In this document: in pieces, positions 2,863-3,482 of the stretch
Numbering within the stretch: the stretch's first letter is position 1
Layout of the letters: every line of letters starts with the position of its first letter
UHGV virus genome: UHGV-0196356
Strand: one strand, 5' to 3'
Length of the DNA: 11,600 nucleotides
From: a virus
The notes under the pieces: generated by a model
Told to the model about the DNA's origin: nothing
Database searches by the model: none
Seen by the model: only the letters and a program-made list of their open reading frames with translations
Translations under genes and position numbers: made by a program

Positions 2863-3315
2863 TCAGCCTTTCTTCTTCCCGAAAAGCTCATCCCATTTTC
2901 TTGATGTTGTTGCTGTTTGCAAGGCACTCGAAACTCTCCCCAAACAAAGGATATCCTCATCATCAAGGGTACGAAGATTGTAGATGATGAATTGAGCCGC
3001 CTGAGCCGCATCTTTACTTCTCGTCTCAAAGAAGCGTTTGCTGGAATCGTAGATATCACTGCTACTGGAGCCAAAAATCAGTTCAAATATGTCTGTCTGA
3101 GTGATTTCAGCAATTTTTTCCAGCTCACTGATTTTCGCATCCCTCTGTGCGTTTGCGATTCGTTTCAGTGTGCCAATGTTGATGCCTGACAGTTCTTCCA
3201 TCCTTTCGTATGTGAATTTGCTTAGGATCGCTTTTTTTATCCTTTCTGCCCGCTGTAAGTCTATGTCTTCTGCCATTTCTTCCGGGTAGCCATTACTGTT
3301 GAAGTTGTCGCTCAT
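2863..3315 (-). CDS. Putative XRE-type HTH transcriptional regulator (candidate phage repressor), 150 aa, divergent from gII
   Basis: Start chosen at internal ATG 3315 (AGGA 6 nt upstream) rather than the ORF-track start 3459, which would run through the gII promoter region. The segment FTYERMEELSGINIGTLKRIANAQRDAKISELEKIAEITQTDIFELI fits an XRE helix-turn-helix pattern. The divergent position relative to the replication gene mirrors rstR/rstA of CTXphi. Confidence 0.5.
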   Translation of the reverse strand: MSDNFNSNGYPEEMAEDIDLQRAERIKKAILSKFTYERMEELSGINIGTLKRIANAQRDAKISELEKIAEITQTDIFELIFGSSSSDIYDSSKRFFETRSKDAAQAAQFIIYNLRTLDDEDILCLGRVSSALQTATTSRKWDELFGKKKG

Positions 3316-3482
3316 TCTATATCCTACTTTTTTGCTCCATTTCAAAAGAACAAATATGTCACTTATCCAGTACAAAATCACTTGAGAGGTAAGATCTTGG
3401 GTGGTACATTTGTGTGACTGAATTGGTACTAATAAGCTCTTGACAGGCTTTCTGGTCACAAAATTGTTCTCTGAGGCGATAC
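3316..3482. promoter_or_regulatory. Divergent intergenic control region between the regulator and gII
   Basis: TTGACA at 3440-3445 with a weak -10 candidate about 17 bp downstream and GAGG before the gII ATG. TGGTAC repeated at 3402-3407 and 3424-3429 (22 bp apart), plus AGTACA at 3369-3374, as candidate operator half-sites. Confidence 0.35.

Follow-up and report, generated by a model that had tools for sequence, protein, structure and literature searches.

The window, by which we mean the whole stretch of 11,600 nucleotides analysed here (UHGV-0196356), represents part of an E. coli-like chromosome and contains a filamentous prophage of about 9.3 kb. Host DNA is left on both sides of the prophage: an autotransporter fragment and a remnant of hipA on the left, and a fimbrial usher region on the right. 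The right border is formed by a perfect dif site of 28 bp at 10312-10339, and a hybrid pseudo-dif lies at 1001-1028, in which 20 of 28 positions, the first 15 included (GGTGCGCATAATGTA, then divergent), are those of dif. Borders of this kind around an element of about 9.3 kb are as expected for XerCD-mediated integration. The genes typical of inoviruses comprise gII (Phage_CRI, 1e-71), gV, a Zot-like gI and a secretin gene. The closest described relatives are CUS-1 from E. coli O18:K1:H7 and YpfPhi from Yersinia pestis, with a gII protein that is 97% identical, and the element is a CUS-1/YpfPhi-like inovirus prophage beside dif. Among deposited phage genomes no DNA similarity to the regulator region was found, the sole match being that of gII to I2-2 (65%), and in a protein search of deposited phages the regulator was matched only by filamentous phages of Vibrio cyclitrophicus (34%). 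No Rfam family matched anywhere in the window.

The host flank at 1-880 is rearranged: the autotransporter fragment is fused to an 80-bp hipA remnant (769-848), so that hipB and most of hipA are missing from the window. In ERP001 and APEC E19057 the prophage has intact hipA and hipB genes next to it. At the other end, between the secretin gene and dif, two small ORFs are found at 9864-10109 (minus strand) and 9465-9713 (plus strand), whose positional counterparts in YpfPhi, YPO2280a and YPO2281, have no known function.

The regulator gene occupies 2863-3315 on the minus strand as an ORF of 150 aa with an ATG start and an AGGA Shine-Dalgarno motif ahead of it. A longer reading of 198 aa from a GTG at 3459 was rejected, because neither the N-termini of homologues nor the RefSeq annotation supports it. 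A divergent control region of 167 bp (3316-3482) separates the regulator from gII (3483-4535, plus strand), the gene for a rolling-circle replication initiator (Phage_CRI 1e-71, G2P_X_C 4e-34), which is the first gene of the rightward phage operon and presumably the target of repression. The sequence-only reading had listed the 150-aa ORF, the 167-bp spacer, gII, two copies of TGGTAC and a TTGACA element, and each of them lies where it had been placed. It had also recognised that the regulator sits in the slot where temperate filamentous phages keep their repressor, and this position holds beyond the window: the gene is divergent from and directly upstream of the replication gene in the window, L002, L003-L006, L015, L016 and L017.

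Family and structure analysis confirmed that the regulator is a helix-turn-helix (HTH) protein of the XRE / Cro-C1 type. Its layout consists of an XRE-type HTH domain at about residues 18-82, followed by a C-terminal domain of three helices at 84-145. The regulator alone matches Pfam HTH_3 with 20 bits (E=7e-4), the curated cut-off being 23 bits. An exhaustive search of 1.84 billion representatives gave a regulator family of 39, where a word-indexed search gave only 6 close relatives; HTH_3 matches 32 of 37 family members at E<=0.01 (best 2e-11), and Phage_CI_repr matches nine of the 37 in the same Pfam scan. The regulator further matches phrog_3557, 'transcriptional regulator', with E=1.4e-68 over residues 9-150. 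In searches of PDB sequences the profile led to XRE proteins, and the single sequence only to marginal matches with archaeal TFE. An AlphaFold (AF2) model built with the family alignment reached a pLDDT of 90.5 (a single-sequence run gave 48 and was useless) and displays the five-helix XRE layout, in which helices 2 and 3 make up the HTH, with helices at 12-33, 36-43, 47-54, 62-72 and 76-81. Foldseek superimposed it with an rmsd of 1.3-1.5 A over 63-66 residues on C.AhdI, the DNA-binding domain of SinR, 434 Cro and P22 c2, which share the fold at a target TM of 0.82-0.85 and a sequence identity of 14-24%. All four are dimers that bind imperfect palindromes of 14-18 bp. In a viral structure library, XRE or CI-like proteins were the only matches. 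Because the family matches, phrog_3557, the AF2 model and Foldseek agree, the earlier description of a 150-aa HTH-like protein is borne out.

The C-terminal three-helix domain yielded no convincing structural match with Foldseek, and no full-length match in the viral structure library. Peptidase_S24, the self-cleaving domain of the lambda CI type, has no Pfam match in the regulator, whose C-terminus consists of the three helices; in this it differs from lambda CI, which carries a C-terminal S24 (LexA-like) domain.

The strongest indication of what the protein does comes from the comparison with a close relative, a CUS-1-type prophage of strain M9 (L002). By blastn the two share 95% DNA identity over 2352-2863 and 93% over 3483-4870 of the window, and nothing alignable between. 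The unalignable block, 2864-3482, extends from just inside the stop codon of the regulator to the base before the start codon of gII, and its boundaries are sharp. The proteins give the same picture: gII (97% identity), gV (98%) and the 140-aa membrane protein (96%) are nearly the same in both phages, whereas the regulators are only 39% identical. The slot has a third occupant, a 60-aa protein (MAKRTTYNVTEERKMKLERLA...; phrog_2503, unknown function) encoded on the minus strand, divergent from gII, in L007 (2649-2831), L008 (1360-1542) and L013 (2650-2832), where gII is 85% identical to that of the window. By eye this protein looks ribbon-helix-helix-like (RHH), and its spacer contains four to five direct repeats of TGAACTCA. 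The control region differs from allele to allele: that of the window shares no DNA similarity with its CUS-1 and RHH-type counterparts.

Related loci were collected with gII as the anchor. The gII family is present in 156 of the 5,426 complete E. coli genomes. Of these 156, 15 have the window type of cassette, 99 have the CUS-1 type and 48 have the RHH type; set against 156, these counts mean that the three types cover essentially all E. coli genomes with this gII family. Strain SW070919 combines the window-type regulator with a CUS-1 structural backbone. Near-identical copies of the regulator occur in Klebsiella, and Erwinia and Yersinia enterocolitica are also among the source names returned by the protein search. 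Regulator gene and spacer thus travel as one exchangeable unit between phages that are otherwise 93-98% identical, a pattern by which an immunity or lysogeny module is recognised, as in rstR of CTXphi.

Among described proteins, the nearest counterpart is YPO2273 of YpfPhi, which is 100% identical to the CUS-1 allele. Its position is RstR-like, and according to a 2014 review its role 'awaits experimental demonstration' (PMC4266046). YPO2273 belongs to the same family and occupies the same slot, next to a gII with 97% identity, in a phage that likewise integrates at dif. It has the same two-domain layout (148 aa, against 150 here) and is a full-length homologue, with 39-40% identity over 146 residues (BLASTP, E=1e-27), and both proteins match phrog_3557. 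It is nevertheless a different allele: gene and spacer have no DNA similarity, the recognition helix reads IGTLKRIA here and VSTLVRIA in the CUS-1 allele, and the spacer repeats are ACA-N4-TGTSAC here and TGCTCA-N4-TGAC in CUS-1.

In CTXphi, phages that are otherwise alike carry highly divergent rstR alleles, and immunity is specific to the allele type (PMC7326730). RstR and the regulator are both small XRE-type proteins encoded divergently from the replication gene, and in both cases the regulator alleles diverge together with the spacer as a unit between similar phages. Both kinds of phage are dif prophages that often stand in tandem with truncated copies, RS1 in the one case, ERP001 and Klebsiella in the other. 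The family profile aligned with RstR of El Tor at 93.5% probability in hhalign (E=2.3e-7, 83 columns, reaching into the C-terminal helix), although the pairwise BLASTP match of the two proteins is not significant (E=0.15). Differences are equally clear: RstR has 112 aa and the regulator 150, with a longer C-terminus; the operator sequence differs; the replication partner is RstA in CTXphi and a Phage_CRI gII here; and the spacer here has no LexA site, the box CTGT-N8-ACAG having no match in 3316-3482 with up to one mismatch. Repressors of the RstR kind act on several operators in the spacer to repress the replication-gene promoter, with SOS input by way of LexA; the spacer here supplies candidate operators for such a role. 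A further temperate filamentous phage, Pf4 of Pseudomonas, has its superinfection immunity controlled by Pf4r, also called repressor C (PMC8402870). Pf4r and the regulator are likened by described role alone. Pf4 is of a different phage genus and integrates by its own integrase and not by XerCD at dif. The regulator is therefore best placed beside these systems as a distinct immunity allele, which extends a known principle and does not establish a new one.

The control region contains three candidate operators, first indicated by a repeat search. They are imperfect palindromes of 16 bp with the form (A/G)G(A/T)ACA-N4-TGT(C/G)AC, in which TGT(C/G)AC is the strong half and (A/G)G(A/T)ACA the weak one. 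OA lies at 3347-3362 on the plus strand (AGAACAAATATGTCAC) and OB at 3403-3418, also on the plus strand (GGTACATTTGTGTGAC), while OC lies at 3455-3470 and reads AGAACAATTTTGTGAC on the minus strand, between a TTGACA -35 element and the Shine-Dalgarno motif of gII. The centres of OA and OB are 56 bp apart and those of OB and OC 52 bp, about five helical turns in each case. OC matches OA as an inverted repeat at 13 of 16 positions, and OB matches OC at 12 of 16. Within the window alone a 13/16 pair is weak evidence, as 20 of 300 shuffles reach it.

Other loci provide a firmer basis. A position weight matrix (PWM) built from three sites in other loci only was used to score 23,170 positions of the window, and it ranked OA first, OC seventh and OB only 75th. 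A refined PWM, which is partly circular for its own training sites, scored OA to OC at 18-23; the fourth-best site in the window (9.6) is a weak candidate at 3414-3429 on the minus strand (GTACCAATTCAGTCAC), which shares GTGAC with OB. In L015, the closest diverged relative, the regulator is 86% identical and the spacer 68% identical overall, but the conservation is uneven: 42 of the 48 positions in OA, OB and OC are retained, against 72 of the remaining 119 (Fisher p=4e-4). OB, OA and OC also coincide with those three 16-mers of the spacer that are best conserved. Site by site, OA and OB each retain 15 of 16 positions and the 16-mer from 3404 all 16, against only 11 of 16 for the site at 3414-3429. 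The motif recurs in more distant loci, and both L018 and L017 have a similar site where OA lies in the spacer. In L018, GTGCCATATATGACAC takes the position of OA and GTAGCATATTTGACAC that of OB. L017 has GTGTCAATTTTGTTCT adjoining gII, as the counterpart of OC, and a perfect palindrome, GTCACAGATTTGTGAC, adjoining the regulator. Regulators of the L017/L018 type are 46-49% identical to that of the window and have a similar recognition helix (TLKRI). A PWM scan did not find the motif in the spacers of CUS-1, where the recognition helix reads TLVRI, or of the RHH type; the CUS-1 spacer has its own triple repeat, TGCTCA-N4-TGAC. P0010 and P0011 were left out of this comparison: they lie in non-phage or degraded contexts with no neighbouring gII, and their upstream DNA is without the motif.

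These sites bear on an earlier proposal that the repeated hexamer TGGTAC serves as the control motif. TGGTAC does occur at 3402-3407 and 3424-3429, 22 bp from start to start, and the two copies could be operator half-sites, arranged as direct repeats two helical turns apart and just 5' of the TTGACA promoter. GTAC forms the left end of both OB and the weak site at 3414-3429, and across the window the hexamer is found 9 times where 4.3 are expected, a slight excess that is also reached in 7 of 200 shuffles. Yet a repeated hexamer is to be expected by chance in a spacer of 167 bp, where four hexamers occur twice, compared to 4.1 +/- 2.4 in shuffles. In L015, where the recognition helix is the same except for one I-to-V change, the two copies read TAGTAC and TAGAAC, whereas the neighbouring ACATTTGTGTGAC is intact. 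Nor is the motif found again in the L017 and L018 spacers. Of the first copy, five of six bases fall inside OB, on its weak left half, and the second copy falls within the site at 3414-3429. We regard it as very unlikely that the hexamers are the half-sites read by the regulator; the idea of a TGGTAC pair as control motif is supported neither by its frequency in the spacer nor by conservation, and OA, OB and OC are the better operator candidates.

Two promoter-like sites face gII. P1 (3382-3410, plus strand), found in consensus scans, has TTGAGA and TACATT separated by 17 bp, with a TG upstream of the latter. P1 can only be called a putative promoter, because such sites are no commoner here than in shuffles (1 versus 1.4). 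P2 (3440-3467, plus strand), found in a relaxed scan, has the consensus -35 element TTGACA (3440-3445) and, after 16 bp, a weak -10 element, AATTGT. The TTGACA had been put forward as the -35 element of gII. It is present and conserved: all window-type relatives have TTGACA, and in CUS-1 and L017 a TTGAC lies about as far from gII. The -10 element that goes with it, however, is poor in all the alleles examined, and the rightward P1 scores better. OB overlaps the -10 element of P1, and OC lies over that of P2. For the regulator itself, a consensus scan gave no sigma-70 match of at least 8/12; by eye only, the minus strand of OA contains TGaCATATT, an extended -10-like element that might serve the regulator gene.

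Taken together, the fold, the slot and the exchange of the cassette give the earlier idea of a lysogeny switch good computational support in the form of a repressor-based switch. We propose that the 150-aa protein is the repressor, that is the immunity protein, of this CUS-1/YpfPhi-like dif prophage and that it acts through OA, OB and OC, and we put the probability of this reading at roughly 0.7. In the proposed mechanism the N-terminal HTH domain would bind the three sites as a dimer or higher oligomer, probably held together by the C-terminal helices. Occupancy of OB and OC would cover the -10 elements of the putative promoters P1 and P2 and so shut off gII and the phage operon, acting by repression rather than activation. 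With gII shut off, replication and virion production would stop, and superinfection by phages with the same cassette would be blocked. Binding to OA, over the regulator's own extended -10-like element, would lead to autoregulation.

The direction of control deserves a separate word, as XRE proteins can either activate or repress. The regulator might mainly, or in addition, act as an activator, comparable to lambda CI at PRM or to CII-like proteins: RNA polymerase at P2 would be aided by regulator bound to OB, some 60 bp ahead of the start. OB is indeed upstream of TTGACA, and P2 combines a good -35 element with a -10 element that is weak in all alleles examined, so that activation at some sites is conceivable. 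The positions of the sites nevertheless speak for repression, since OC covers the -10 element and start of P2 and OB covers the -10 element of P1. The swap of the cassette between near-identical phages likewise fits an immunity repressor best, and proteins in the same position in other filamentous phages have been described as repressors (PMC7326730, PMC8402870). We therefore consider an activating role unlikely.

Directly after the stop codon of the regulator, at the left edge of the conserved flank, two hairpins lie at 2816-2862 (minus strand). This segment folds as RNA with -25.9 kcal/mol (z=-4.07), a value that none of 200 shuffles attained, and the hairpins are conserved in 143 E. coli genomes. 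The second is the likely intrinsic terminator of the regulator transcript, because a 10-bp stem is followed by UUCUUUAUU and a terminator scan also found it. The small hairpin at 2847-2862 pairs GTCTCA with TGAGAC here and GTACCA with TGGTAC in the RHH-type phages, so that the pairing is kept. The preserved pairing suggests that selection acts on a structure, in RNA or DNA, at the left junction of the cassette.

Beyond the hairpins, the cargo at the left end of the prophage (1090-2350) consists of minus-strand ORFs for three proteins of 257, 105 and 54 aa. Megablast gave no match to the block in any of the 5,426 complete genomes of E. coli, not even in the 15 with a window-type regulator, and its Pfam and PADLOC matches are all marginal (PADLOC E of 2e-4 or weaker). 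It had been suggested that the same regulator controls this accessory module. That suggestion finds no support: scans of the window with the external and refined PWMs placed no operator-like site upstream of the accessory genes, a strong terminator stands between, and the genes downstream of the regulator are unrelated elsewhere. Read-through from the regulator's promoter into the accessory genes may occur.

A related possibility is that the regulator is not the switch of the phage at all, but serves an accessory module, of toxin-antitoxin or defence type, as its antitoxin or regulator, with the genes for 140, 54, 105 and 257 aa as the rest of the module. XRE proteins are frequent among antitoxins, the downstream genes are on the same strand as the regulator, and there are the weak PADLOC matches. 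The last of these are however marginal throughout, and the strong terminator separates the regulator from the supposed partners, ahead of which no operator-like site is found. The 140-aa gene stays 96% identical although the regulator is swapped, different genes lie downstream of the same regulator in ERP001, APEC E19057 and SW070919, and the genes at 1090-2350 are absent from the 5,426 E. coli genomes, the 15 regulator carriers included. Antitoxins of the HipB/HigA kind have a fixed, co-transcribed partner; here a terminator follows the gene and the downstream genes vary. We give this explanation hardly any credence.

On a wider scale, the inoviruses of the CUS-1/YpfPhi family in Enterobacterales might possess a three-way immunity slot, with two XRE alleles of different operator specificity and an unrelated RHH-like protein. 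The three types would set heteroimmunity groups, allow these phages to stack at dif or to displace each other there, and move from one structural backbone to another; the window would represent the rarest type, with a three-operator switch predictable from its sequence. The odds of this general scheme seem to us about even. Filamentous prophages at dif, among them CTXphi, YpfPhi and CUS-1, influence how virulent and how fit strains of cholera, plague and extraintestinal E. coli are. With three alternative regulatory cassettes in E. coli, it can be predicted which lysogens should be immune to which phages, and the window offers a testable switch composed of one protein, three candidate sites of 16 bp and two rightward promoter-like sites.

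Several of the related loci show unusual arrangements. In ERP001 (L001, 7960-10852) a truncated copy precedes the full prophage and comprises two small ORFs, the regulator, gII and an 81-aa ORF; this truncated copy at dif recalls RS1 beside CTXphi. The 81-aa ORF (phrog_21003) is one of the two small ORFs found between the secretin gene and dif, and its retention in this tandem copy points to a possible role in replication, integration or regulation. Klebsiella spallanzanii (L003) has two regulator-gII units in tandem at dif, about 3.8 kb apart. The stretch examined from SW070919 (L024) contains three complete copies in tandem at dif, all identical, plus the end of a fourth; five places were counted in the chromosome. 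The contigs L006 and L007 are filed under metagenome-assembled genomes of Aerococcus sp. and Candidatus Nanosynbacter sp., labels that probably reflect mis-binning and not the true host range. In a further metagenome contig (L016, 968-2833), a Phage_CRI-secretin fusion of 621 aa adjoins a window-type regulator that is truncated to 121 aa; L016 is a deletion derivative in which all structural genes between Phage_CRI and the secretin have been lost. In the window itself, finally, the 54- and 105-aa cargo proteins have, by eye, a common stretch of the form '...DTS.AKM.L..IK..Q...'.
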